Below are positions 1 through 64,000 of a stretch of 64,000 nt of DNA, in pieces (positions within the stretch are counted from its first letter, which is position 1; every line of letters begins with the position of its first letter). Source of the DNA: Patescibacteria group bacterium (lineage in GTDB: Bacteria > Patescibacteriota > Minisyncoccia > Portnoybacterales > UBA2143). The DNA is taken from contig JAHJSM010000003.1 of assembly GCA_018830295.1 (NCBI GenBank), positions 2,512 to 66,511 on the forward strand, given 5' to 3'. Below the pieces are notes generated by a model. It was not told where the DNA came from, made no database searches, and saw only the letters and a program-made list of their open reading frames with translations. The translations under genes were made by a program, and so were the position numbers.

Positions 1-454
1 TTTCGTTCATTTCGGGTAAAAACATTCTTCGCAGATCTTTTAATCCTTTTTTTCTTGGCTTTGTTTCGCCGGTAAAAAGTTTTAGCAATTTCGCGATGTC
101 GGCTGGAATGTTCCATAATTCAATATATTTGCCTATCCATCTTTTATCAACCTGATTGCCTCCGCTATTATGATTGCTAACCAGTTTTACTTGTAAATTT
201 TGAACATCTATTTGAGATTTTAACTTGATGCTTATCTGTATTTGCACTTGAACATCGGCTTTATACGAGCCCCTTATTTTAGACGCTTTTACATATTCAA
301 TATCATTGATATTATAGTCCATCGCTTCAAGCCATTTTTGAGCGGTTTTATCTTTCTCCCAGTCGTTGAATTTATCAATAACATCTTTTTCATTCCTAAA
401 TCCGTCTTTTGCGGTTTTGGATCCTCGTTTTATTAATTCTTTTTTGGCGGTCAT
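1..454 (-). CDS. hypothetical protein, C-terminus beyond window start; candidate restriction endonuclease partnered with adjacent C5-MTase
   Basis: The reverse-strand ATG lies at 452-454 and the frame stays open to the window edge (MTAKKELIKRGSKTAKDGFRNEKDVIDKFNDWEK...). It is absent from the ORF track only because no stop falls inside the window. The function is guessed from its position next to the MTase and HTH controller, not from recognised motifs. Confidence 0.3.
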   Translation of the reverse strand, partial: MTAKKELIKRGSKTAKDGFRNEKDVIDKFNDWEKDKTAQKWLEAMDYNINDIEYVKASKIRGSYKADVQVQIQISIKLKSQIDVQNLQVKLVSNHNSGGNQVDKRWIGKYIELWNIPADIAKLLKLFTGETKPRKKGLKDLRRMFLPEMNE

Positions 455-474: not shown

Positions 475-1464
475 TTATTTATTTATAAAATTAAGAAGGC
501 TTTTGCCGAACGCTTCAACAGTATTGACGGTCATCGCGTTGCCGGCTTGGCTAAGCAGGTAAATATCTTGAATTTTATCTTTGACTTTGCTTGATATTTC
601 TTTGGGAAATCCTTGCAATAGCAAAGCCTCGTAGCCGGATAATTTTCTAAATTTTCCATTTTTGACATACAAAATTCCGTGTCTTCCTGTTCGCAATGTT
701 GGCGCCTTTCCTCGATATAGACGCAAATCTGATTGGCGAGTGTCTATAATCAAATAATCCTCTTTTAAAAATTCGTCAACTGAAAATCTATTCTTATTAT
801 ATTTATTATTAACATAATTTAAGAATGTTTCGTAAGTTCTTTTCTTTTCGCCAAATTCCAGTTCGCTATCGTCTATTAAATAATCTTTAAGTTCGGGGGT
901 TTCTACAATTTCCGGATATACAAATCTTTTATCATTCTTCGCTAAATCATTTCGCATTCCGACAAAATATATTCTTTCCCTCATTTGCGGCACTCCGTAA
1001 TGAAGGCTGCTAACCAACTTCCAATAAACATTGTATCCCGCTTCGCCCAGAGCGTTCAAAATGATTTTTAACGATTGGCCGCTCCCATGATTCAGAAGGC
1101 CTTTCACATTTTCTAAAATAAAATATTTTAGATTTTTGGCTTTCATTATATCTATCAAATTAAAAATAATTTGACCGCGCCGATCTTTCATTCCCGTTCT
1201 TTGCCCCATAACCGAAAAAGTTTGGCATGGAAAACCAGCAATCATTAAATCAAATTCTGGTAAATCATCAGGGTTTATTTTTGTTAAATCGCCATAATTT
1301 TTTTCTTCATTGCCAAAAAATTCGCGATATGTTTTTTCTGAATTTTTATCAATTTCTGAAAAACCGACGCATTTCATTCCTAAATTTTCTAGACCAATTC
1401 GTCCGCCTCCAATGCCGGCGCAAAAATCAATAAATTTCAATTTGTTGTTTTTCGCATTCGTCAT
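475..1464 (-). CDS. DNA (cytosine-5)-methyltransferase
   Basis: C5-MTase motifs are present: motif I FCAGIGGG, catalytic PCQ (GFPCQTFS) and ENV (ILENVKGL). Length is 329 aa. Confidence 0.9.
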   Translation of the reverse strand: MTNAKNNKLKFIDFCAGIGGGRIGLENLGMKCVGFSEIDKNSEKTYREFFGNEEKNYGDLTKINPDDLPEFDLMIAGFPCQTFSVMGQRTGMKDRRGQIIFNLIDIMKAKNLKYFILENVKGLLNHGSGQSLKIILNALGEAGYNVYWKLVSSLHYGVPQMRERIYFVGMRNDLAKNDKRFVYPEIVETPELKDYLIDDSELEFGEKKRTYETFLNYVNNKYNKNRFSVDEFLKEDYLIIDTRQSDLRLYRGKAPTLRTGRHGILYVKNGKFRKLSGYEALLLQGFPKEISSKVKDKIQDIYLLSQAGNAMTVNTVEAFGKSLLNFINK

Positions 1465-1746: not shown

Positions 1747-3258
1747 ATGAACAAAAGACAATCTAAAAAATGCGCGATTTATACAAGAGTATCCACGGAC
1801 AACCAAGCGGAAAAAGAATTTTCGTCTTGCGACGCCCAAGAGCAAAAAATAAAGTCATTCATCGCCAGCCAAGAGAATTGGCAGGTTTTTAAGGTATATT
1901 CTGACGCGGGATATTCTGGAGTTAATACAGACAGACCCGCGTTGCAAGAACTGCTTTCAGATTTGAAACAAGAGAAAATTGATATTGTCTTTGTGTATAA
2001 AATAGATCGGCTCACCCGTTCGCCAAAAGATTTTTATCAGTTGATTGATTTTTTTGAGCAATCAAAAATTGATTTTATTTCTATTACTGAAAGATTTGAC
2101 ACTTCAACGCCGGCAGGGCGGCTTTTGCGAAATATTATGCTTACATTTTCGCAATTTGAAAGAGAATTGGCAAGCGAACGAACAAAAGACAAATTATTGG
2201 AACGGGCTAAAAAAGGAATGTGCAACGGCGGATTGACACCCTATGGATATATTCGTGAAAATAAAAAACTAATCCCCCACTCAAAAGAATCAGAAGAGAT
2301 AAAATCAATTTTTGAAAAATACCTTGAAACAAAATCTCTTTCTGCTGTTTATAATTTTTTAAAAGAAAGGGATGTTAAAAATAAAAACGGCAAAAATTTT
2401 TCAAAAACAAGTATCGCCCACATCTTAAGAAATGTTGTTTATAACGGAAAAGTAAAATATAACAATATAATTTATAATGGACTTCACCAGCCGATAATTT
2501 CAGAAGAAATTTTTGCCCTTGCGCAAGCAATGCACAAAAACAAAATAAAAAAATTAAGACTGTATAAAAATTTTCTTTTCGGCGGATTGATTAAGTGCAA
2601 AGAGTGCGGCTCTAAAATGACATCTTGTTTTACTAACAAAAGAACAAATGAAAAATTAAAAAGATATTATTACTATCGTTGCACCTCAACACTAAGAAAT
2701 GATTGGCAAAGTTGTTCAGTAAAACAAGTGTCTGCCGAAAGATTAGAAGATTTTTGTTTGGAAAATTTAGAACGAATTTCCGTTGATAAAAACTATATTG
2801 AAAATTTGGTTTTCCGCTTGAATAATGATTTTCAATCGCCCTATCGGGCTGGATACGAACCAGCAAAAGCATGCTCTAAACTTTCGCTATTTTCGGCAAA
2901 GAAAATCGCGAACAACCTAAAATCCTTCCTCTCCGCCCTCTCTCGGAAAAAAGGGATTGAAAGAAACCTCTTGATTAAAAAATTTCTGAAAGAAATTATC
3001 TATTCCCCTGAAAATGTTAAAATTCGGCTCTTTTATTCAGAGAATTCAGAGAATTTTCCGAATTTTGCCTCCGAAAAAACGCCTGCCTTGCGAAAGCAAG
3101 GCGGCGCGAAAAAAATAAAGAAAGAAACAGAAAATGCTATTTTCTCTGACAAATCAGAGTTCGCCTCGTCTAACTCGGCTCCGCGGGCAGGATTCGAACC
3201 TGCAACCAATTGCTTAACAGGCAACTGCTCTACCATTGAGCTACCGCGGAATATTTAA
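1747..3258 (+). CDS. large serine recombinase (resolvase/invertase N-domain, recombinase domain, zinc ribbon)
   Basis: The N-terminus has AIYTRVSTDNQ with the catalytic Ser and DIVFVYKIDRLTRS. A recombinase domain follows, then a Cys pattern CKECGSK...YYRCTS. The last ~180 nt of the ORF as called read antisense through the tRNA-Asn terminator and tRNA-Asn itself. The true stop is therefore uncertain. Confidence 0.85.
   Translation: MNKRQSKKCAIYTRVSTDNQAEKEFSSCDAQEQKIKSFIASQENWQVFKVYSDAGYSGVNTDRPALQELLSDLKQEKIDIVFVYKIDRLTRSPKDFYQLIDFFEQSKIDFISITERFDTSTPAGRLLRNIMLTFSQFERELASERTKDKLLERAKKGMCNGGLTPYGYIRENKKLIPHSKESEEIKSIFEKYLETKSLSAVYNFLKERDVKNKNGKNFSKTSIAHILRNVVYNGKVKYNNIIYNGLHQPIISEEIFALAQAMHKNKIKKLRLYKNFLFGGLIKCKECGSKMTSCFTNKRTNEKLKRYYYYRCTSTLRNDWQSCSVKQVSAERLEDFCLENLERISVDKNYIENLVFRLNNDFQSPYRAGYEPAKACSKLSLFSAKKIANNLKSFLSALSRKKGIERNLLIKKFLKEIIYSPENVKIRLFYSENSENFPNFASEKTPALRKQGGAKKIKKETENAIFSDKSEFASSNSAPRAGFEPATNCLTGNCSTIELPRNI
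2843..2877 (-). other. degenerate tRNA 3'-half-like fragment (possible att-site remnant)
   Basis: About 75% identical to the T-arm and acceptor 3' half of tRNA-Asn (ggatacgaaccagc versus ggattcgaacctgc). It lies ~300 nt from the intact tRNA, in the same orientation. Confidence 0.3.
3073..3107 (-). terminator. rho-independent terminator downstream of tRNA-Asn
   Basis: Hairpin GCCTGCCTTGC-GAAA-GCAAGGCGGC, followed by a T-run on the minus strand (plus-strand ccgaaaaaa). Confidence 0.45.
3179..3250 (-). tRNA. tRNA-Asn (anticodon GUU)
   Basis: The reverse complement folds as a cloverleaf. It has a 7-bp acceptor stem UCCGCGG/CCGCGGA, D-arm GCUC/GAGC, anticodon loop CUGUUAA and T-arm GCAGGUUCGAAUCCUGC. 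Confidence 0.85.
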
Positions 3259-3341
3259 TTATTGATATGATTTTATACCAAAAAACTATAATAATCAAGG
3301 TTAGACCTTGTGCCAATAATTTTAAAAATATAACTTAAATA

Positions 3342-3378
3342 AAAAGACCGATTAGTATTTTTATAACCAATCGGTCTC
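3342..3378. terminator. AT-rich hairpin plus T/A runs, bidirectional terminator-like
   Basis: An inverted repeat agaccgatt...aatcggtct is flanked by A/T runs. It lies downstream of the minus-strand gene ending at 3402. Confidence 0.35.
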
Positions 3379-3401
3379 AATAAAACTATTGTTAATTGAA
3401 A

Positions 3402-3854
3402 TTAAACCTCCGTTGTTTTTATAGATTCCAAAAAATCTATATAATCAACTGGTAATTTTTGCTGTCGCGCTCCCTTTAATATTTTATTCATATACAGCAA
3501 ACGCGGCTGGCCACTTCCTTTTTTGATTTTGACAAAATACGCCCATGCGATATGCTCTTCACCGTAAGAATTAAAAACGACGATTTTTTGCCTTAGATAG
3601 CCGTCAGTCAAATGGACAACTTCCCGTTGGTCTAAAACTAACATATCCGACATTGTGAGAGCATAAACCGCGCCCCAAACACGATTATTAGGATCAAATA
3701 CCATATCAGCCACCCATCCGCCTTTTGTGGATTTTCGCGTAAAATCTAATTTGAAATTTGGATAATACGCTAATGTTCCAAAAGAAGCGCTTGAACACCT
3801 TTCTCGCATTTGTTCATAAAGCAAATTTGAACCATAAGCAAAATATAATTCCAC
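3402..3854 (-). CDS. gamma-glutamyl cyclotransferase-like (AIG2/GGCT fold) protein
   Basis: The N-terminal signature YFAYGSNL is typical of the GGCT/AIG2 family. Length is 150 aa. Confidence 0.65.
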   Translation of the reverse strand: MELYFAYGSNLLYEQMRERCSSASFGTLAYYPNFKLDFTRKSTKGGWVADMVFDPNNRVWGAVYALTMSDMLVLDQREVVHLTDGYLRQKIVVFNSYGEEHIAWAYFVKIKKGSGQPRLLYMNKILKGARQQKLPVDYIDFLESIKTTEV

Positions 3855-3913
3855 AACCTACCTCCTTTGATTCTCGGGTTAATATTTTAAATAACTATGA
3901 ACAGTATAATATA

Positions 3914-5014
3914 TTATAATCTTTTTGTCAATAAAGCATCAAGCGTTTCCCTCGCGCATTTTTTCCATGAGAATTTTTGCGCTTGTTCCAATCCCCTGCT
4001 AATTAATTCCTGCCGCGCGCTTTTATCCGTCAGCGCCTCGCGCATCGCTTCTGAAATTTCGCTGATGTCATAATTATCCTGAATGTAAATCGCCGCCTCA
4101 CCCGCTACTTCTGGGATTGAAGCGACTGGACTGGTAATGACTGGTGTTCCGCAAGCGAGCGCTTCCAAAACGGGCAGGCCAAAGCCCTCATAATCGGAAA
4201 GCCAAACCAACAAATCCGCCGCGTTGTAAAGAAGAGCCAAATCTTTAGAATTGATATATTCTTTTCGCAAAACTCCCCTGCTCTTCATAGAAAAACAAGT
4301 ATAATTTTTTCCAACAATTAAAAACTGGTAACCAGGCAATTCACCGGCGATTTCTCCAAACGCTTTAATCGCTTCTGGTAAATGGCGACGATTAAAAATT
4401 GAACCAATGTAAAATATAAACTTATTTTTCACCCCGTATTTTTCCTTAACTTCCGCCAGTTTATTCTCGTCATCAATCCGTCTAAACGACTCGTCCGCCG
4501 CTAAAGGCGTGACAAAAACCCTTTCCGAATCCACTTGATAATATTTCAAAACCTCCATTTTGCTATACTCCGAAGGAACAAAAATAATCTCCGCTTTTCG
4601 CGCAGCTATTTTAGAAAATCTTTTTAACAATATTTTATCCCAAACACTCGGCCAGTTATATAAATCAGGGCGCGCCTGATAAATAATATCATGCAAGGTT
4701 AACACTATCTTCCCGCCATAAAAAAGCGGCGCGACATAAGCTGGACAAAACAAAAGATCAATCCCGTCCTTCTTAGCCGCCCGCGGTAAAACAAAATGTG
4801 TAAAAAAAGCATTACTCCGTCCGCCGATTATCTTTTTTTCAAAAACCGCCTCTGACAAGATTAAATCCTTCGGAATTTCTTCTTTAAAATACAAAATAAA
4901 TTTCAAATCATTAGGCAAATTAAAACTATTCCACTCTTTCAGCAGATTAAACAAATAGCGGCCGACGCCCGTCCGTCCGCCTTCCAAATTCCGCCCATCA
5001 ATCCCAATAATCAT
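3914..5014 (-). CDS. glycosyltransferase family 4 (GT-B, GT1/GT4-like)
   Basis: C-terminal EGFGLPVLEALACGTPVITS motif. The likely start is MIIGIDG, with its ATG at 5012-5014. Confidence 0.8.
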   Translation of the reverse strand: MIIGIDGRNLEGGRTGVGRYLFNLLKEWNSFNLPNDLKFILYFKEEIPKDLILSEAVFEKKIIGGRSNAFFTHFVLPRAAKKDGIDLLFCPAYVAPLFYGGKIVLTLHDIIYQARPDLYNWPSVWDKILLKRFSKIAARKAEIIFVPSEYSKMEVLKYYQVDSERVFVTPLAADESFRRIDDENKLAEVKEKYGVKNKFIFYIGSIFNRRHLPEAIKAFGEIAGELPGYQFLIVGKNYTCFSMKSRGVLRKEYINSKDLALLYNAADLLVWLSDYEGFGLPVLEALACGTPVITSPVASIPEVAGEAAIYIQDNYDISEISEAMREALTDKSARQELISRGLEQAQKFSWKKCARETLDALLTKRL

Positions 5015-56015: not shown

Positions 56016-59000
56016 TTAGTATCCCACCGCATCCGCAGAAGGCGTTTCTAGCTCTTCAACCACCGGTTCCTCGGCAACAGGTTCCTCAGTCACCGGCTCA
56101 GGAGAGGACACCTCCACCACCGGCTCCGGCTCGTCCGCTTCAGGGACTTCTTCGGGGGCTGCCCCCGCAACGGGGGCAGCCCCCTCTTCATCAACCACCG
56201 GGGGCAGTCCCTCGTCCGCGGGGGCTGCTCCCTCTTCATCAACCACAGGTTCCTCAACCACCGGTTCAACCACCGGGGGCAGTCCCTCGTCCGCGGGGGC
56301 TGCTCCCTCTTCATCAACCACCGGCTCCTCCGCAACCGCCCCGCATTCCCCGGCGACTGTTTGCGCCGCCCCACTCGCAACAAAGAAACAATACGGTAGT
56401 CCCGTCACTCTATCATACAATGTAATCCCTGCCTGCTCTTCAACTCCTCCTCCAACCTTCAATTGCTCTGTTTCAATATTTTTCGCCTTAATTTTATCAA
56501 CAACTAAAACTCCTTCCTCGTCCAAAACCAATCCCAATTCCGCCAAATCCATCCTTAATTCCTCCAGCGAATCCACTTCAACCAAATCCCCATTTTCATC
56601 CCGCTCCACTGTCAACAACGCCTCCAATTCCTCTAATCTATTATTCAACGCTTTAACCCCCGCTAAAGCAAACGAAGTATAATCATACAAACTAACCGAC
56701 TCCCCATCAGAAATCATCCCAATAGGGGGCAGTCCCCCGTCGCGGGGGCTGCTCCCGTCCGCAACTTCCCCTCCCCCATACCTCCCCATTTCCATCCCCG
56801 CAATCAGCCCTAAAATCTCAGCGTAATCCGCCTCCTCTAAATATGTAACTTCCATTTCATCCGCGCGCGGCAAATAGACATCCCATCCGTCAGCAATCGC
56901 GCTCCCCGCGCCCCGCCCAATCGTCAAGATATTCGTCGGCGACGAAGTAGCAATCCCAAACCGCCCCATCGTATCCAAAACCAACCCCACAGGGGGCAGA
57001 GGGGGCAGTCCCCCGTCGCGGGGGCTGCTCCCGTCCCATGCCTCCACCAACCTAATCAACCCCGCCTCCTCCAACTTCAGTGTTAATCCGTCCGTCAACT
57101 GCTCCATTCCCTCCATCCGCGCGTCAATCTCCTCAAACTGCTCTGGAATAACATCTCTAATATCCAACGCCAAATCGGAAATTTCATCCATCGCGAGCGT
57201 TAATTTAGCGTCAATCAAAAGCAACTGCGGAGAAACAATTTCGTTAATATCATCCTCTAAGTTCAAATTATCAATCGCTCCAGCAATCAAGATATTAACT
57301 TCATCTTCAATCTCCATCGCCGCGACCCGCTCCGTCACTTTATCTTCCACCTCTTCCACTGTGAGCGACTTATTCCGCCGCGAAATCAAAACATTAATCA
57401 CCCCTTCGCCTTCTTTAAGTCCCTCAAGCGCTACCCCAACCGTCGGGTCCCCCGCCCCTGCCCGCATAATATACCCTGGAACCGAAGCCGAAGTAAGCGA
57501 ATCCCCCGGGCGAATAGGTCCGCCTTCCGCAGAGACCTTCGCTGGCACCTGCCCAAGCATTCCAATAATAGCGTAATGCGGATTGTCTTCCCGCCTTTCA
57601 TCAGAAGGAGCGTTCCCCAAAAATGCCGGATTAGTTGAAACAATACCCATGATATTTCCATCAGCCGCCCGTTCGCACCGCTTGACCGCGTTTTCCCGTT
57701 CAATATCAACGCAAACCGCCTCGCCTGATTTCAAATCGGTATCAATGGAATAATAGTATTCAGCGTAGTCAGCCGAACCGGAAGTCCAAGCGTTGGTCGC
57801 GTTGACATAAGCCACATTAACGCCGTCGCTATTATGGTCAACTGTCAGCCGATAATCTGGCGTCGTGTCCCCGATGCCGACGTTGCCGCTATTTCTTTTG
57901 ACTGCAATTCCAAGAATTTCCGACCCAGCATCATAACCGACGATTTTAAGCACATAATTTGCTTCATCAAAAAGTATTTTAGCACCGTATGTGGAAAGGC
58001 CACGTTCCATAAAAGAGATTCCTTTATTGGTTCCCTCGGGGATATTCAAAGATAACAATTCATTTGGACTCGTCGTCCCGATGCCGACGTTGCCCGAGGC
58101 GTTTATACGCATTCGTTCCTTAATACTGGAACTATCATTTGTGTGGAAAGATAAATAACCAGTAGCAGAACCGTCAGTCGCAGATTCTTTTCTGCCCGCA
58201 ATTGCTCCAAAAATCTGTTTGCTCCCCGCACTGTTGTAAAAACCTCCCATACCGATTGCACCGCCTTTGTCTATGGCAAAAGAATCGCTGGTCATTGCCG
58301 CAATGTGAACCTGTGCATCTCCATTAAGTCCATCCGCCAAATTCTGATTGGCTTTGACAACATCTAAGGTTGTCCCCGGACTCACTGTCCCGATGCCGAT
58401 ATTACCCGCCGAAGTGACAACGAAGGAGGGCGTTGCTCCAACTGTGAAATCCCCACCAATATACATAGCTCCAGTAGTAGTTGCATTGCCATCAACCGTT
58501 AAATTACTTCCAAAGTGACCTGCTCCTTGAGTAAATAGACCCGTAGTAGAAGAAGCATATCCTGTTGTAACTAAATTCCCCCCTGAAGTAACCGTCAATA
58601 GATTTGCGCCGGTGGATGAGGCAATAGTAAATATATCTGAACTACCAGCTGTGCCTTGAATAGATAGTTTAGATAGTGGCGTTGTTGTTCCTATGCCGAC
58701 GTTGCCGCCGACAACTGATAACGTCTCAGTAAATGCACCACTATTTCCATAGCCAATTCCTACTCTACTCGCACTGTTTACGGAAAAAATTTGCAACAGA
58801 TTATTTTGAATACCAAACCCGTAACCAGTTCCCGCGGCATTGTCATATAATGCAATCTTATTTCCCACTGCTGTACCTAATGACAATGGAAAACTCGGCC
58901 CCGTCGTCCCGATGCCGACGTTGCCGCTAAATACTGCCTTACCTCCTATACTTAAAGTATCAGTGGTAGTTGCCGAACCCATTGTCAATCCAAAGGCGGT

Positions 59001-62000
59001 CGTGTCTGCGGCAGTATTAACAAGAAATGCGTCATCTACATTAAAAGTCGTTCCAACTAAAGTTAAATTAGTTCCGCCTAAATAGGTCGTGTTTGTGTCA
59101 GTCGCGTCTAATGTATTGCCAGTCCAAGCTAAATTAGTCCCTGCGGTTATCCGATTAGAGGGAGTGTCGTAAAAAGTATTCCAATTAGTCGTGCTTGCTG
59201 ATAAAGGGATTATGTATCCAGTAGTTAGGGCAATATCGTCTAAAGCCAACTCAATGCCTGTTGCTCCGACTGTTAAATTGGTTTCTGATGAAATATCAAC
59301 GGAAGTGCCTAATGTAATAATAGCGTCAGCGTTTCCAGCGGTTAAAGTGCCTACCGTAACTAAACTTGGAAGCGAACTTATTAAAGCGTGGGTTGTGGTC
59401 GCATACCAAGTTGTAAGAGGAAAATATCCCGCTATTGAGTGGTTGCCCCAGCCATAAGCGGTATTCCAGTTTCCTGAATTATTTGTGATTGAGGTGTCCC
59501 AAGCCGAGCCCGTGCTTAATGCTATTCCAGCTGCTGGATAGACCATACCTCCGCTTGGAGTGGTTGTTGCTATAACTAATCCAGTAGCGTCAACAGCTAA
59601 AAATGAACCAGCGGCTGTTGCTAAAGATGAGATATAAAAAGTATCTGTTGTCGTGGCAGAGTTCATTGAAAGCCCCCCAGACATTGTATCAGTAGTATTT
59701 AATACATAACTATCATTTGCCGTAACATAATATCCACCCGAAGCGTGATCCCCCCAACCGAATGCGGAATTCCACTCGTCAGAATTGCCGCCAAAGGCGG
59801 CAAAATGTCCCGTTGTTGTCGCGTTTCCGCTAACTAAAAGATTATCATCTATGGTTAAATCTCCTAATGAATCGGCGATGTTCCCTTGAAAATCAGATGC
59901 GCCCGCGACGGTTAAGTTGTTGTTGAAAGTAGAGACGCCGTCGGCCGAGAATGTTCCCCCCGCGTGGATATTGGATTGGGTGAAGAGTCCCGCCGTCGTG
60001 CTTGCGTAGCCGGCGACATATTCATTTCCGATTACATGGAATTTGTAGCTCGGCGCCGTCGTCCCAATCCCGACGTTGCCGCTTTCACTCACATAAAGCA
60101 ACGACGCCCCTGTGGAACTGGCGATGTTCATAACTGGTTGTCCTGCTGTGCCTTGAACGCTTAGTTTGGTTAAAGGTGAAGTTGTGCCTATCCCGACGTT
60201 GCCGCCGTCCAAAACAGTTATTCCATTACTTGCATTATCGTAAAGATGAAGTCCACTATCATTCGTCGCCGAGAGAGTATTCCCCGTGGAGAGTAAATTC
60301 CCAAGCCAAGAAGTCGTCGCTGAAAATAATGTTGAAGTCGCATTATTAAATTGCGCGTAATCAACAGTCGTAGCAAAAGTATTTGGAATATCATTACATC
60401 GTCCAGCACCGATAACTTGAACTACGCCTGTCGCGCTTGCCCTTGAAACTCTTGCCACGGCTTGAATACAGTCGCTTGCTCCTGTCGGGCGTGTGCTTGT
60501 TAATGTTCCCGGAGTAGTACTTAAAAATAAAGCGTCATTTACGGCATAAGCCGAAGTATTTATTCCTGATAAAACGCCGGATGATATTACTGTTCCATTT
60601 GTATTATTTGATATACTGCCTGTGGTAAGTCCAATTGCAGGATATTTCGCGCTGTCATCAGCGTCAGCTAAATCTATCGTTATCCTGCCTTGTCCGACAT
60701 TATATCCTGTAATATAAACTGGAGTGCCTGCTGATATAGTAGAACCACTTGTATTTCTAACTAAAATCAGAGAAGAGGCTGAACTTACATTAACAGGACT
60801 ATTCGGGTGCGACTGTATCATCCAACCGCCCACATCTTCCATAAATACTAAAGTCATTATTTGGTCAGGGGCTAATACTCCGTTTGTCCCTCCGTGGAAT
60901 ATTGACGAACCTGACAATACTGAATTGTCTTGAAGTTCTATTGTGAAAGAACCTGTGTTTTGAATATATAAAATTTGCCCTTGCGTAGATGAAGCGATAG
61001 TCGGGGTGCCTATCATTACATAATCAGCGTCAGATGAGATATTAAGCAAGGAATTTGTTGAAACTATCGCAGTTGTAGAAGCTGTTAATACTTGCGTGGT
61101 ATTAGGAGAAGTGAATAATCTTTTTGTGGTTAAGTCGCCGTCCACCCTCGCATTGCCATAAACATCCAGCTTGTATGCAGGAGAAGTCGTGCCTATGCCG
61201 ACATTTCCCGCAAATGTCGCACCCTCGCCTACCCGTAATTCCCCCGAAGCGTTTAAGTCGCCTGCGGTGAAGTTGAAATACCCGTCATCTACGCCTACGG
61301 ATAAATAACCCGTTGTGGTTAGGTTGCCTGTTTGGGTGATGGCTCCGTTGAAGGCGGTGTTGTGGGCAATAATTCCGTTGGCGACAAAGTTGTGCGTTCC
61401 TTCTACTTCTATGTCATAGACCTGTTCAGGAGGAAGGATGCTAATTCTCGCAATTTTGACGAATTTGACGGAGCCGAAACTCTCCTCAACATCCGATGAG
61501 CTCCCGAGTTCCGCCAAATTCGCGACGGCGATTGTGTCGCCTTCGCTTAATTCAGCGACGCGCGTCCATCGCGAACTTGACAGAGTATCCGCGTCGCTGT
61601 TATTATTCTCTTGTATGTCTAAATTATCATCTTCATTTACTATCATTGATAATAATAATTTGCGGGGCGTTTTGGCTCCGCCAAAAATGTTGTCCAAAGA
61701 ACTATTGGAAGATATTTTGGATTTGGTCTCATATTCAAGACCTAAAGTGGCAGAAAAATTAAACAAAGATTTCAAAGAAGCCAAAAAAGAAAGCTTAGTT
61801 GACGGCGAAGCATTAAGAAAATCATTGAAAATATAATTATGTTCCGCTATAATTTCACCCGCAAAGCCGCCAAAGAAATCAAAGGAATGCCCCGCAATAT
61901 CCAACGCCGAATTTTCAACGACATCTTGACTATTTGCCGCCTCAATCATCCTTTGCAGGACAGAAGCGTTTTGAAACTCCGAGGGAAATACAGCGCGCCC

Positions 62001-64000
62001 ACTTTCCGACTGCGTTCCGGCAATTACCGAATTATTTTCCGTATCATTAACCATATCATCGTCATCGGAAGCGTCAGACACAGGCAAGAGGGATATTGAT
62101 TTGTTCAGCGCAAGATATGGATGATTCCCCGTCGTTCTAATTATCCTGCTGTCTTCTGTTTCAATCTCGTAAATGGTCTTAACCCCCATATCCATCAACT
62201 GCTTAATTTTGGCAGGCGTTAATTCGCCTGTTTTTTCATTAAGGGATAAGACATAGTCGCCCGGCTGGACTTCGTCTATACGGGTGTATTTGGGGGCAGC
62301 CCTCGCAACGGGGGCTGCCCCCGAATTCACTATCGGCAAGAGCGTATCCCCCGTCACGCATTGCCCGTCCACGGTTAAGTCCTTCTTAATGTATTGGCTT
62401 CCAGTTGTCGTCGCGTTTCCTTCTATGTTGAGATAACCGAGAACAGAGAGATTGTCGGAGATGGTTGTCGTGCTGTTGTTTGCGGCGAGGTCTATGTTTA
62501 AGTCGCCGTTTGTGTCTATGGTGAATGAGGCGTATTTGGATGTTGAGACATCATAAGAGAGCCGCAATTGTTCGGTCGTTGAGGAGGCGTGAATGCGGCC
62601 GACTACAGCCAGAGCTGAATCTGGCGTGGTTGTCCCGATGCCGACATTGCCCGATGTTCCTACGCCGCTGGACGGGCCCACATAGAATGTTGGGATATTA
62701 CTATTAAATCCAATGGCAAAAGAATTGTCTTTATTGTGAACTAATGGAACGGCACCACTTACTCCAGAACCTAACGCAAAAGTCGAATCCGCGTCGCTAC
62801 TAATACTAATGTATTTTCCTATACCAAAAGAAAAATTTCCGGCATTAGTAACTCCATACCCTAATGCTATAGCGTCTTGTCCGCTTAAAGTAAGATCTCT
62901 GCCAAATCCCTTTGAGTAACTTCCGCTGGCGATTATATCACTTCCAATTGCGATCTTGCCAGAAGTGGAGAAGAGAATATCCCCTGTTCCCGCAACAGTT
63001 AGGCCACTCTTAAGGGTAGTAACCCCGTCGGCGGAGAATGTTCCGCCAATATGCCCATTCCCCTGCGTAAAGAATCCTGCTGTCGTAGAGGCGTAGCCAG
63101 TAATATTAAGATTGCCTGTTTGGGTGATTGCTCCGTTGAAGATAGTGTTGTGGGCGATAATGCCGTTGGCGACGAAGTTGTGAGTTCCTTCTACCTCTAT
63201 GTCATAGACCTGTTTTCTGCCCGTTGGCTCAATGGAAACAATTTTTTCCCAAATCGCTAAATTACCCTCGCCAGCCGCCGCGATTTCCATACCCGGTTGA
63301 AGATAGATAACTTTTGTCCACTTTTGACTATTGACAGAAATTTGAGGTTTAGTATTATTAAAGTATATGCGATTAAATAAATCCCAATTTGAAGCGATTT
63401 CCAGTTTTTTTGTTGATTTAGCAAAGATATTGTTCGCCTCAACTGTGGTTGGGTTTTTCATTCCAGGTTCCTCCGGAATTGTTAATATGCCCGTATTCAC
63501 CATCGGTTCTGTATCCACTTTGGGGTTGTTCACATTGAGCGTTATTTTATTAAAGTCCGAATAATTATGAATTATCTTATTGTCGCTTATATTATTACTT
63601 GTATCATGGCTACCATTATTTTCATTTGGGCCATGGAACATAGAAAATAAATTATGAATAATATTATTCTCTACATTATCGCCGGCATTGTCATTTTGAC
63701 TATGTTCGGTGTCGCTTTCTTCTATAATTCCAAATCTAACTAAGTATGGGTGGTTGCCCGTCGTTTCAATCTGTTTACCCGATTCCGTGGTTAAACGAAA
63801 TGTCGTTTTGACCCCCATATCCATCAACTGCTTAATCTTGGCAGGCGTTAATTCGCCTGTTTTTTCATTAAGGGATAAGACATAGTCGCCCGGCTGGACT
63901 TCATCTATGCGGGTGTATTTGGGGACAGCCCTCGCAACGGGGGCTGCCCCCGAATTCACTATCGGCAAGAGCGTATCCCCCGTCACGCATTGCCCGTCCA
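56016..64000 (-). CDS. giant tail-fibre-like repeat surface protein (>2656 aa, N-terminus beyond window) containing two intein-like modules and many hairpin-element insertions
   Basis: The reading frame is open for 7.97 kb. It holds many GNVGIGTT(S/T)P beta-helix-like repeats and a conserved C-terminal-proximal segment ADYAEYY...GEAV...IMGIVSTNPAFLGN. The acidic tail contains tandem duplications. Confidence 0.7.
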   Translation of the reverse strand, partial: DGQCVTGDTLLPIVNSGAAPVARAVPKYTRIDEVQPGDYVLSLNEKTGELTPAKIKQLMDMGVKTTFRLTTESGKQIETTGNHPYLVRFGIIEESDTEHSQNDNAGDNVENNIIHNLFSMFHGPNENNGSHDTSNNISDNKIIHNYSDFNKITLNVNNPKVDTEPMVNTGILTIPEEPGMKNPTTVEANNIFAKSTKKLEIASNWDLFNRIYFNNTKPQISVNSQKWTKVIYLQPGMEIAAAGEGNLAIWEKIVSIEPTGRKQVYDIEVEGTHNFVANGIIAHNTIFNGAITQTGNLNITGYASTTAGFFTQGNGHIGGTFSADGVTTLKSGLTVAGTGDILFSTSGKIAIGSDIIASGSYSKGFGRDLTLSGQDAIALGYGVTNAGNFSFGIGKYISISSDADSTFALGSGVSGAVPLVHNKDNSFAIGFNSNIPTFYVGPSSGVGTSGNVGIGTTTPDSALAVVGRIHASSTTEQLRLSYDVSTSKYASFTIDTNGDLNIDLAANNSTTTISDNLSVLGYLNIEGNATTTGSQYIKKDLTVDGQCVTGDTLLPIVNSGAAPVARAAPKYTRIDEVQPGDYVLSLNEKTGELTPAKIKQLMDMGVKTIYEIETEDSRIIRTTGNHPYLALNKSISLLPVSDASDDDDMVNDTENNSVIAGTQSESGRAVFPSEFQNASVLQRMIEAANSQDVVENSALDIAGHSFDFFGGFAGEIIAEHNYIFNDFLNASPSTKLSFLASLKSLFNFSATLGLEYETKSKISSNSSLDNIFGGAKTPRKLLLSMIVNEDDNLDIQENNNSDADTLSSSRWTRVAELSEGDTIAVANLAELGSSSDVEESFGSVKFVKIARISILPPEQVYDIEVEGTHNFVANGIIAHNTAFNGAITQTGNLTTTGYLSVGVDDGYFNFTAGDLNASGELRVGEGATFAGNVGIGTTSPAYKLDVYGNARVDGDLTTKRLFTSPNTTQVLTASTTAIVSTNSLLNISSDADYVMIGTPTIASSTQGQILYIQNTGSFTIELQDNSVLSGSSIFHGGTNGVLAPDQIMTLVFMEDVGGWMIQSHPNSPVNVSSASSLILVRNTSGSTISAGTPVYITGYNVGQGRITIDLADADDSAKYPAIGLTTGSISNNTNGTVISSGVLSGINTSAYAVNDALFLSTTPGTLTSTRPTGASDCIQAVARVSRASATGVVQVIGAGRCNDIPNTFATTVDYAQFNNATSTLFSATTSWLGNLLSTGNTLSATNDSGLHLYDNASNGITVLDGGNVGIGTTSPLTKLSVQGTAGQPVMNIASSTGASLLYVSESGNVGIGTTAPSYKFHVIGNEYVAGYASTTAGLFTQSNIHAGGTFSADGVSTFNNNLTVAGASDFQGNIADSLGDLTIDDNLLVSGNATTTGHFAAFGGNSDEWNSAFGWGDHASGGYYVTANDSYVLNTTDTMSGGLSMNSATTTDTFYISSLATAAGSFLAVDATGLVIATTTPSGGMVYPAAGIALSTGSAWDTSITNNSGNWNTAYGWGNHSIAGYFPLTTWYATTTHALISSLPSLVTVGTLTAGNADAIITLGTSVDISSETNLTVGATGIELALDDIALTTGYIIPLSASTTNWNTFYDTPSNRITAGTNLAWTGNTLDATDTNTTYLGGTNLTLVGTTFNVDDAFLVNTAADTTAFGLTMGSATTTDTLSIGGKAVFSGNVGIGTTGPSFPLSLGTAVGNKIALYDNAAGTGYGFGIQNNLLQIFSVNSASRVGIGYGNSGAFTETLSVVGGNVGIGTTTPLSKLSIQGTAGSSDIFTIASSTGANLLTVTSGGNLVTTGYASSTTGLFTQGAGHFGSNLTVDGNATTTGAMYIGGDFTVGATPSFVVTSAGNIGIGTVSPGTTLDVVKANQNLADGLNGDAQVHIAAMTSDSFAIDKGGAIGMGGFYNSAGSKQIFGAIAGRKESATDGSATGYLSFHTNDSSSIKERMRINASGNVGIGTTSPNELLSLNIPEGTNKGISFMERGLSTYGAKILFDEANYVLKIVGYDAGSEILGIAVKRNSGNVGIGDTTPDYRLTVDHNSDGVNVAYVNATNAWTSGSADYAEYYYSIDTDLKSGEAVCVDIERENAVKRCERAADGNIMGIVSTNPAFLGNAPSDERREDNPHYAIIGMLGQVPAKVSAEGGPIRPGDSLTSASVPGYIMRAGAGDPTVGVALEGLKEGEGVINVLISRRNKSLTVEEVEDKVTERVAAMEIEDEVNILIAGAIDNLNLEDDINEIVSPQLLLIDAKLTLAMDEISDLALDIRDVIPEQFEEIDARMEGMEQLTDGLTLKLEEAGLIRLVEAWDGSSPRDGGLPPLPPVGLVLDTMGRFGIATSSPTNILTIGRGAGSAIADGWDVYLPRADEMEVTYLEEADYAEILGLIAGMEMGRYGGGEVADGSSPRDGGLPPIGMISDGESVSLYDYTSFALAGVKALNNRLEELEALLTVERDENGDLVEVDSLEELRMDLAELGLVLDEEGVLVVDKIKAKNIETEQLKVGGGVEEQAGITLYDRVTGLPYCFFVASGAAQTVAGECGAVAEEPVVDEEGAAPADEGLPPVVEPVVEEPVVDEEGAAPADEGLPPVVDEEGAAPVAGAAPEEVPEADEPEPVVEVSSPEPVTEEPVAEEPVVEELETPSADAVGY
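56154..56190. repeat. GC hairpin unit in giant ORF tail
   Basis: gggggctgcccccgcaacgggggcagccccc. Confidence 0.85.
56196..56322. repeat. tandem duplication (~75 nt x2) in C-terminal tail of giant ORF embedding hairpin elements
   Basis: caccgggggcagtccctcgtccgcgggggctgctccctcttcatcaaccac occurs twice and encodes EEGAAPADEGLPPVV repeats. Confidence 0.6.
56725..56757. repeat. GC hairpin unit in giant ORF
   Basis: gggggcagtcccccgtcgcgggggctgctccc. Confidence 0.8.
56992..57035. repeat. GC hairpin unit in giant ORF
   Basis: gggggcagagggggcagtcccccgtcgcgggggctgctccc. Confidence 0.8.
61438..61836 (+). CDS. Phd/YefM-like antitoxin candidate (start uncertain)
   Basis: The C-terminal part, FTIIDNNNLRGVLAPPKMLSKELLEDILDLVSYSRPKVAEKLNKDFKEAKKE, parallels YefM ([48 protein letters not shown]). 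The stop lies 2 nt before the toxin ATG. It lies antisense inside intein-like module 2. Confidence 0.45.
   Translation: MLILAILTNLTEPKLSSTSDELPSSAKFATAIVSPSLNSATRVHRELDRVSASLLLFSCMSKLSSSFTIIDNNNLRGVLAPPKMLSKELLEDILDLVSYSRPKVAEKLNKDFKEAKKESLVDGEALRKSLKI
61839..62099 (+). CDS. type II toxin, RelE/ParE family
   Basis: The 86-aa sequence KLRGKYSAPTFRLRSGNYRIIFRIINHIIVIGSVRHRQEGY matches the RelE/ParE consensus (kL.g....y.lRvGdYRiiY.i.d....v..v.hRkdvY). It is translationally coupled to the upstream ORF. Confidence 0.75.
   Translation: MFRYNFTRKAAKEIKGMPRNIQRRIFNDILTICRLNHPLQDRSVLKLRGKYSAPTFRLRSGNYRIIFRIINHIIVIGSVRHRQEGY
62292..62322. repeat. GC hairpin unit inside intein-like module 2
   Basis: gggggcagccctcgcaacgggggctgccccc. 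Confidence 0.85.
63147..63989 (-). other. intein-like module 1 of giant ORF
   Basis: Cys at 63987-63989 (CVTGDTLLPIV...) ... QVYDIEVEGTHNFVANGIIAHN, then Thr. The core is low-complexity with no recognisable endonuclease motif. It contains hairpin element NSGAAPVARAVP. Confidence 0.7.
63921..63951. repeat. GC hairpin unit inside intein-like module 1
   Basis: ggggacagccctcgcaacgggggctgccccc. Confidence 0.85.

Follow-up and report, generated by a model that had tools for sequence, protein, structure and literature searches.

Inteins are thought to persist by means of homing endonucleases and to decay to mini-inteins once the endonuclease is lost, and toxin–antitoxin (TA) modules stabilise mobile elements such as plasmids, integron cassettes, integrative and conjugative elements (ICEs) and prophages. 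Here we describe a stretch of 64,000 nucleotides, hereafter the window, from the contig JAHJSM010000003.1 of a Patescibacteria group bacterium, in which both kinds of selfish element appear combined. A putative operon formed by a small antitoxin and a RelE-type toxin is found antisense inside an intein, at the position usually taken by the homing-endonuclease domain. The nearest published concept that we have found is the ShiLan insertion, an in-frame insertion that hides an HNH nuclease in a phage methylase, in an alternative frame of the same strand (PMC11855218). Neither a TA operon nor any other antisense gene inside an intein was found described in open-access papers or in bioRxiv, so that an earlier description is possible.

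A toxin–antitoxin operon antisense to an intein

The following features of the window are needed to describe the arrangement.

56016..64000, minus strand: host gene, a giant repeat protein with GNVGIGTTSP-type repeats, of more than 2,657 amino acids and extending past the end of the window
61359..62360, minus strand: intein 1, 334 amino acids, with Cys1 at 62360-62358, a TTGNH block B, the terminal His-Asn at 61364-61359 and a +1 Thr
62109..62360, minus strand: N-terminal splicing region of intein 1, residues 1-84, ending in ...TTGNHPYLA
61569..62108, minus strand: cargo slot of intein 1, residues 85-264, a stop-free stretch that reads promoter, antitoxin and toxin as their reverse complement
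61359..61568, minus strand: C-terminal splicing region of intein 1, from W265 to VYDIEVEGTHNFVANGIIAHN
61577..61606, plus strand: putative sigma-70-like promoter of the TA operon, TTGACA, 18 nucleotides and a TG-extended TATTAT, with 11 of 12 consensus matches
61615..61836, plus strand: candidate cognate antitoxin gene, 73 amino acids, ATG start, TAA stop 2 nucleotides ahead of the toxin ATG
61839..62099, plus strand: RelE-family toxin gene, 86 amino acids, ATG start, TGA stop

The host gene codes for a surface-type repeat protein of a Portnoybacteria-like bacterium of the candidate phyla radiation (CPR), and the only Pfam content of its open reading frame (ORF) is inteins. The sequence frame of intein 1 is CVTGDTLL...TTGNHPYLA...VYDIEVEGTHNFVANGIIAHN:T, with the C-terminal end ...IIAHN (here and below a colon marks a splice junction). 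The splicing domain was recognised by PF14890 (Intein_splicing, E=4e-19) and by the NCBIfam model TIGR01443 (intein_Cterm, E=1.1e-10, 41.4 bits against a cutoff of 15.6), and the match to TIGR01445 (intein_Nterm) was borderline, 24.4 bits against a cutoff of 24.5. The nucleophile at position 1, the TxxH of block B, the C-terminal His-Asn and the +1 Thr were all found, and on these motifs intein 1 classifies as a class-1 intein (Hint superfamily) with its splicing motifs apparently intact. The Pfam scan detected no LAGLIDADG, HNH or any other domain in the intein frame; the insert is the TA operon in antisense. Promoter, antitoxin and toxin (61577..62099) fill the middle of the intein, flanked by block B, which ends at 62109, and by the C-terminal region, which starts at 61568. 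An Rfam scan of 61000-64000 gave no match.

An earlier sequence-only reading had called an 86-amino-acid RelE/ParE toxin here, and the call was borne out by Pfam, by a sequence profile against the PDB and by the predicted fold. The protein, that runs from MFRYNFTRKAAKEIKGMPRN to FRLRSGNYRIIFRIINHIIVIGSVRHRQEGY (N- and C-terminal ends), matched PF05016 (ParE_toxin), the model of the RelE/ParE superfamily, along profile positions 1-88 of 89 (E=4.4e-9, 37.2 bits with a gathering score of 23). A profile made of the toxin and four relatives retrieved from the PDB RelE3 of Methanocaldococcus jannaschii (3bpq, 1.2e-7), aRelE of Pyrococcus horikoshii (1wmi, 2.4e-7) and RelE of Escherichia coli (1.4e-6). 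In the Foldseek comparison of the AlphaFold2 model (predicted local distance difference test, pLDDT, 86.7; predicted template modelling score, pTM, 0.73) ranks 1-10 were all RelE (top 1wmi_A, E=2.2e-6, template modelling score 0.75), and the earliest ParE structure came at rank 38 with an E value of about 8e-3. Both the fold and the sequence match rankings favour RelE, supporting a RelE-type rather than a ParE-type toxin and disfavouring an identity as gyrase poison (ParE).

In the HMMER alignments R57, R64, R82 and Y86 of the toxin correspond to K54, R61, R81 and Y87 of E. coli RelE, and R82 and Y86 also to R85 and Y89 of aRelE. From the RelE literature we take K52, K54, R61, R81 and Y87 of the E. 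coli protein to be catalytic or ribosome-contacting residues. Among 12 relatives of the toxin R57, R64 and R82 are invariant, and Y86 is kept wherever the C-terminus could be aligned. The C-terminal pattern described in the earlier reading is present, as FRLRSGNYRIIFRIINHIIVIGSVRHRQEGY, with the spacing R.R and not R..R, and the inactivating changes at conserved Arg or Tyr positions that had been considered there were not found, R57, R64, R82 and Y86 being kept. The toxin seems therefore free of visible inactivating substitutions, and its sequence and modelled fold predict a ribosome-dependent mRNA endonuclease. When the window toxin was looked up by exact sequence among 15 billion collected proteins, it was absent, consistent with gene callers skipping fully nested antisense genes.

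Upstream of the toxin the reading frame is open from 61420 and holds an ATG at 61438, a GTG at 61534 and an ATG at 61615. Four toxin relatives from the databases, 49-67% identical to it, each have a called gene directly upstream. The resulting proteins, of 70-76 amino acids, can be aligned over their whole length with the product of ATG 61615 (44-69% identity), with collinear N-termini. In at least 10 other loci (loci outside the window are numbered with an L throughout) a full-length relative of the antitoxin immediately precedes a relative of the toxin, and the pair is present in L001-L012, L096 and others with strict co-occurrence. The antitoxin family comprises 68 proteins in a word-indexed search and 48 representatives at 50% identity among 1.84 billion. 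All its members are short and nearly all unnamed, the named ones come from Patescibacteria, and the family was found almost only in Patescibacteria metagenomes; no relative of it appeared in viral contigs. The upstream gene looks like a genuine and complete antitoxin candidate of a small unannotated family, whose product would neutralise the toxin by direct binding. The sequence-only reading was right about the existence of a cognate upstream gene, although its account of this finding does not mention that both genes are antisense to an intein in a giant minus-strand ORF. Its statements that no ATG start was evident and that the gene might use a non-ATG start or be partly decayed could not be maintained, given the in-frame ATG 61615 with its 73-amino-acid product, the full-length conservation, the codon pattern of purifying selection and the conserved promoter.

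A start preceded by a ribosome-binding site upstream of about 61520, also contemplated in that reading, does exist: the ATG 61438 has a perfect AGGAGG 4 nucleotides upstream (window 61425..61440) and opens an ORF of 132 amino acids. We have rejected it as a gene start. The extension of 59 amino acids is unmatched in the homologues, the AGGAGG is the reverse complement of Pro-Pro codons (ILPPEQ) in the C-terminal region of the intein, the cargo of L093, which is unrelated, is preceded by the same open extension, and the conserved promoter comes only after the extension, which argues against the longer ORF. The ATG 61438 is thus probably not a real start, and the GTG 61534 was unsupported.

The AlphaFold2 model of the antitoxin (pLDDT 81) shows a beta-hairpin (strands 9-13 and 16-20) followed by three helices (28-40, 43-55 and 64-70). 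A distant member of the family, P0115 (102 amino acids), has a DUF433 domain fused to the C-terminal half of the antitoxin family, and this chimera suggests that the C-terminal half is a portable, presumably toxin-binding, module. Type II antitoxins are usually modular, binding DNA with the N-terminus and the toxin with the C-terminus, and P0115 would fit this build.

Toxin and intein are read in register, each toxin codon being the exact reverse complement of an intein codon, and the antitoxin is offset by one base. The antiparallel overlap amounts to ~490 nucleotides in the window and to ~1,060 in L008. Between the window and L002 the toxin showed 28, 13 and 44 substitutions at codon positions 1, 2 and 3, and the antitoxin 18, 10 and 33 differences; translated in the toxin frame the two sequences share 66% of their amino acids, and translated in the intein frame 44%. 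The third-position bias and the higher identity of the toxin frame indicate that selection acts on the TA frames and not on the intein frame. The intein frame is open over the whole of the TA genes, and this openness is non-random. Against an expectation obtained by synonymous-codon resampling with the codon usage of the host gene, the window has 0 stops where 4.8 were expected (P=0.0006), and for L008 9.2 were expected (P<0.0002). Furthermore, the codons TTA, CTA and TCA are missing from all five nested toxins tested, that of the window included, and each of the seven free-standing homologues has 2-4 of them. The lack of stops and of these three codons indicates a recoding of the TA genes that leaves the intein readable across them.

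The promoter ends 8 nucleotides before the antitoxin ATG 61615. The arrangement TTGACA-N18-TATCAT/TATGGT-8 nucleotides-ATG precedes the antitoxin in L002, L008, L011 and two free-standing loci, despite diverged surroundings, and the same geometry was found before the cargo of L002, L008 (twice), L011, L094, L099 and a second intein of the window (intein 2, see below). From such a short distance a leaderless or near-leaderless TA mRNA is predicted, which would explain the missing Shine-Dalgarno sequence. Two further candidate signals were located.

61553..61599, no strand assigned: inverted repeat, candidate operator, perfect 10 base pairs (CAGCGACGCG / CGCGTCGCTG) bracketing the -35 box
62211..62242, plus strand: terminator-like hairpin, CAGGCG-TTAATT-CGCCTG followed by a T-run, ~112 nucleotides past the toxin stop and within the coding sequence of the intein N-domain

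The inverted repeat appeared in the window only and was not conserved at the other loci compared. A hairpin with a T-run is found at the equivalent place in L094 (3457..3476, minus strand) and just after the toxin in L008 (4514..4533, plus strand). Two of these cargo-strand hairpins fall within the coding sequence of the intein N-domain, at the LNEKTG... codons, with different stem sequences. The hairpins are suggestive of terminators built into the intein for the cargo transcript and may act as such.

Recurrence and exchange of the cargo

Recurrence was searched at the DNA level, since gene callers omit fully nested antisense genes, in a sample of related inteins that was small and chosen by similarity to the window intein. 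Antisense RelE-type pairs were found in the same intein family at five other loci (L002, L008, L011, L096 and L099), L011 belonging to Candidatus Sungbacteria (MHQR01000001.1). For the pairs of L096 and L099 the hhalign probabilities were 98.6%, 95.6% and 95.9%. In L008 (QNAP01000047.1, the same contig as Ga0180300_10001862) an intein of 599 amino acids (3214..5010) carries two tandem antisense RelE-type TA operons (3434..3909 and 3977..4491), each with its own copy of the promoter, and the intein frame stays open across ~1.06 kilobases. The nested copies, at 39-66% amino-acid identity, keep the ORFs, the catalytic residues, the third-position bias and the fixed distance to the promoter. Taxonomy labels of metagenome-assembled genomes ("Thermotogae" for L008, "Pacearchaeota" for L006) may reflect binning errors.

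Other cargo was found in the same slot. In L094 (JGI Ga0669692_11468, 3570..4231) an antisense DUF433 gene (4.8e-24) and a DUF5615/Mut7-C gene (1.4e-15) stand behind TTGACA-N18-TATCAT, a pairing that has been predicted as an antitoxin and a PIN toxin (Makarova et al. 2009, PMC2701414). A small antisense ORF for a membrane protein is the cargo of L093, L095, L098 and intein 2 of the window. Most cargo types share the same promoter signature. Altogether, antisense cargo was present in 6 of the 7 related inteins with a large insert and no in-frame NYN domain for which the DNA was fetched.

Many intein relatives (proteins P0117-P0236) carry an in-frame NYN domain (PF01936, a PIN-like nuclease), that may be the homing or another nuclease of the family. 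The antisense signature of the antitoxin family, GA.TPR, was found in none of 120 intein-family proteins. A metagenome scan with the toxin profile gave 80 loci, mostly distant RelE relatives, the only nested one being L014, which is the contig of L008; the other open antisense frames among these 80 loci were in high-GC contigs and showed no intein motif.

The exchange of the cargo could be followed between the window and L093, a Portnoybacteria contig with the orthologous insertion site, where the membrane-protein ORF occupies the place of the RelE pair. The DNA identities between both are the following.

N-extein: 70%
intein N-domain: 91%
cargo slot: 39%
promoter and C-domain: 89%

The breakpoints are directly after GNHPYLA and at the promoter. 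With 89-91% identity in the intein against 70% in the extein and 39% in the cargo, the intein chassis is far more conserved than the host gene and the cargo is exchangeable. The difference between intein and extein (window 61380..62610 compared with L093) would point either to an intein that moved horizontally in recent times or to a constraint of unusual strength.

The second intein of the window also carries antisense cargo.

63147..63989, minus strand: intein 2, 281 amino acids, with termini near-identical to those of intein 1 and a different middle
63331..63564, plus strand: antisense cargo of intein 2, TTGACA at 63331-63336, 16 nucleotides, TATTAT at 63353-63358, 8 nucleotides, ATG at 63367
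63367..63564, plus strand: cargo ORF of intein 2, a 65-amino-acid protein with two predicted membrane-spanning segments

Homologous antisense ORFs are those of the inteins in L093, L095 and L098, with DUF6722 matches that were sub-threshold; possible roles of the protein are those of a small membrane toxin or of an immunity protein. The two inteins are paralogous and both are inserted in the host gene at the repeated extein motif ...VDGQ:C ... HN:T(A/I)FNGAITQTGNL (62358..62372 and 63987..64000; 61347..61358 and 63135..63146). In other genomes the site reads (H/V)(V/E)GQ:C ... HN:TYIS. The arrangement in the window suggests that the intein may have spread between the repeats of one gene, though no endonuclease is recognisable.

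Two other observations concern the relatives. In L011 (about 230..300) a tandem duplication of 18 amino acids spans the C-terminal splice junction (GNDIVAHN:TYISSDLSI twice), giving two possible splice sites. In L098, where the inteins carry membrane-protein cargo, a free-standing pair (a 60-amino-acid ORF and a PF05016 toxin, 2664..3145) lies directly downstream of the intein-bearing gene, indicating that TA modules also cluster beside genes with inteins.

A proposed addiction role and the alternatives

We consider it probable that intein 1 contains an intact, autonomous type II TA operon in antisense and that this operon is functional. We infer that the operon is expressed, that the toxin is toxic and the antitoxin neutralises it, and that the intein is competent for splicing. 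The plus strand would be transcribed from about 61613 and the antitoxin and then the toxin translated, the latter probably by coupling. RelE would cleave ribosome-bound mRNA once the labile antitoxin is no longer replenished. On the opposite strand the host ribosome would read the reverse complement of the TA genes as ~180 filler residues that protein splicing would remove together with the intein, with the TA genes restricted to codons and codon junctions that yield no antisense stop. If the segment bearing the intein were excised precisely, replaced by gene conversion or lost to recombination between the gene's repeats, the toxin would be freed. The intein in return would offer the TA a phenotypically silent home for its insertion. 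The slot is modular: behind the same promoter, related inteins have one RelE pair or two, in one case DUF433 with a PIN-like partner, and in others a small membrane protein. That the operon acts as an addiction module by post-segregational killing, the likeliest of the roles considered, is a tentative proposal, to which we give a little less than even weight. On balance we lean slightly to the broader picture of a Patescibacteria intein family with a dedicated antisense cargo slot, its promoter by the C-terminal region and perhaps a terminator in the N-terminal region, filled with recoded and exchangeable modules. They would be the first known inteins whose persistence rests on addiction, alone or together with homing, and would add an instance from nature of dual coding that is long and fully antiparallel.

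Several points weigh against this picture. The equivalent of E. coli RelE K52 is Thr55 in the toxin, at a position that is not conserved, and the toxin gene has no obvious Shine-Dalgarno sequence, so that translational coupling across the 2-nucleotide spacer must be assumed. The promoter and terminator calls are consensus matches. The antisense openness of the GC-rich L011 was individually non-significant (P=0.18), and L097, a related intein with a large insert, has no antisense ORF. In L002 (a Logan SRR29366192 contig, about 850..1040) the frame of host and intein is shifted after the TA, which may reflect either an assembly error or a decaying intein with surviving cargo. Finally, for TA modules on chromosomes a stabilising effect can often not be demonstrated. 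The shift in L002 lies between ...LNEGDDI and ...FGKIKFVKIAKIEILPAEQ, and the TA there is intact.

Alternatively, the cargo could serve the host, either by antisense transcription that regulates the giant gene (through interference or a long antisense RNA) or as a RelE module acting in phage abortive infection or stress. A near-consensus promoter directed against the host gene and the possible terminators inside the intein N-domain would suit such a role, and TA operons are autoregulated, so that the antisense output could be condition-dependent. However, antisense regulation would work without coding cargo, and the cargo ORFs show conservation at the protein level. No defence model of PADLOC was matched, and the intein DNA, 91% identical against 70% for the extein, points to a mobile and selfish unit. 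We regard this explanation as unlikely.

It is also quite unlikely that the TA is a passive hitch-hiker or recent relic that landed in the tolerant middle of an intein, unexpressed and shaped solely by the openness of the host ORF. TA modules do insert promiscuously, the free-standing relatives occur in TA islands, and the host frame of L002 is broken beside an intact TA. An unexpressed relic, however, would have gained stops or frameshifts in the TA frames, whereas the diverged nested copies (39-66% identity) retain ORFs, catalytic residues, third-position bias and promoter spacing. Besides, several TA families and a membrane protein are found in the same slot behind the same promoter.

Much less credible is the proposal of the sequence-only reading that the upstream ORF is a Phd/YefM antitoxin with an atypical N-terminus, non-ATG or decayed, leaving the toxin perhaps poorly restrained. 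The strings quoted for its alignment to YefM (FTIIDNNNLRGVL and SYSRPKVAEKL) are present in the protein, but the alignment has no statistical support. By eye FTIIDNNNLRGVLAP...ELLEDILDL resembles the beta2-beta3-alpha3 part of YefM, and the best Foldseek match was the YefM-family RelJ (3oei_E), non-significant with E=4.1 and a probability of 0.10. Against this, neither the 73- nor the 132-amino-acid ORF matched Pfam or NCBIfam, and among 63 family members, the window protein included, no PF02604 match and no recurrent Pfam domain was found at E<=1. The profile searches of the family against PDB sequences gave nothing relevant, and hhalign produced no alignment with E. coli YefM. The antitoxin starts ~8 residues before its first strand and the N-termini of its homologues are equally short, so that in the model it appears devoid of the N-terminal beta1-alpha1-alpha2 part, the dimerisation and DNA-binding core of the Phd/YefM fold. 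As to a non-ATG start or decay, the collinear product of ATG 61615, the promoter at 8 nucleotides in many loci and the codon pattern of purifying selection all speak against it.

That the plus-strand ORFs are just the chance reverse complement of a functional domain internal to the intein, as the continuously open intein frame might suggest, is hardly conceivable, since in the free-standing homologues of both genes the antisense frame that corresponds is interrupted by stops, it is the plus-strand products that match Pfam, the PDB and known folds, the substitutions concentrate at third positions of plus-strand codons, and the minus-strand insert has no domain match.

Relation to known systems

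A RelE toxin with a small partner is by itself ordinary, and the main result is the intein context. If true, a TA in the place of the endonuclease represents a different strategy of persistence and links two classes of selfish elements that have been studied separately. The locus is also a clean case from nature of overlapping genes that run antiparallel, and their recoding can be measured by the avoidance of TTA, CTA and TCA in the nested toxins. Standard annotation skips nested antisense genes, and consequently TA modules and possibly other cargo are under-counted in CPR genomes. If splicing is confirmed, these inteins would tolerate ~180-450 residues of arbitrary filler, which is relevant to intein engineering.

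As in the RelBE-type systems (aRelE/aRelB of P. horikoshii, 1WMI; RelE3/RelB3 of M. jannaschii, 3BPQ; RelBE of E. coli), the window has a two-gene operon with the antitoxin first, here with a spacer of 2 nucleotides. The toxin shares with them the small RelE fold and the conserved Arg and Tyr positions, and the antitoxin is likewise short, helical at the C-terminus and of the kind expected to wrap the toxin. Unlike RelB (ribbon-helix-helix) or aRelB, the window antitoxin is modelled as a beta-hairpin and three helices, and the operon differs in being nested antisense in a coding sequence and apparently leaderless. To Phd/YefM (PF02604) the antitoxin is alike in its small size, and its hairpin-helix and C-terminal toxin-binding helix loosely resemble the C-terminal two thirds of YefM; it differs in having no sequence or profile match, no beta1-alpha1-alpha2 and a fold match that is non-significant.

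With the canonical endonuclease inteins (LAGLIDADG or HNH) intein 1 shares the class-1 motifs and a large insert at the endonuclease position, and also here the intein DNA is more conserved than the host gene and two copies are found at the same repeated target motif. In contrast, the insert has nothing recognisable in the intein frame, its information being on the opposite strand, in the form of a promoter with a TA operon or another small gene, and persistence would rest on addiction and not on DNA cleavage. The mobile elements stabilised by TA modules are, like this one, selfish elements with an addiction gene, and the carrier is here an intein. The ShiLan insertion likewise preserves the frame of its host gene and encodes a further product; there this product is a nuclease on the same strand, whereas in the window it is a fully antiparallel TA operon. 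The TA on its own adds to kinds already known, but the composite of intein and TA, a variant of such kinds, may represent a class of composite selfish element that is new.

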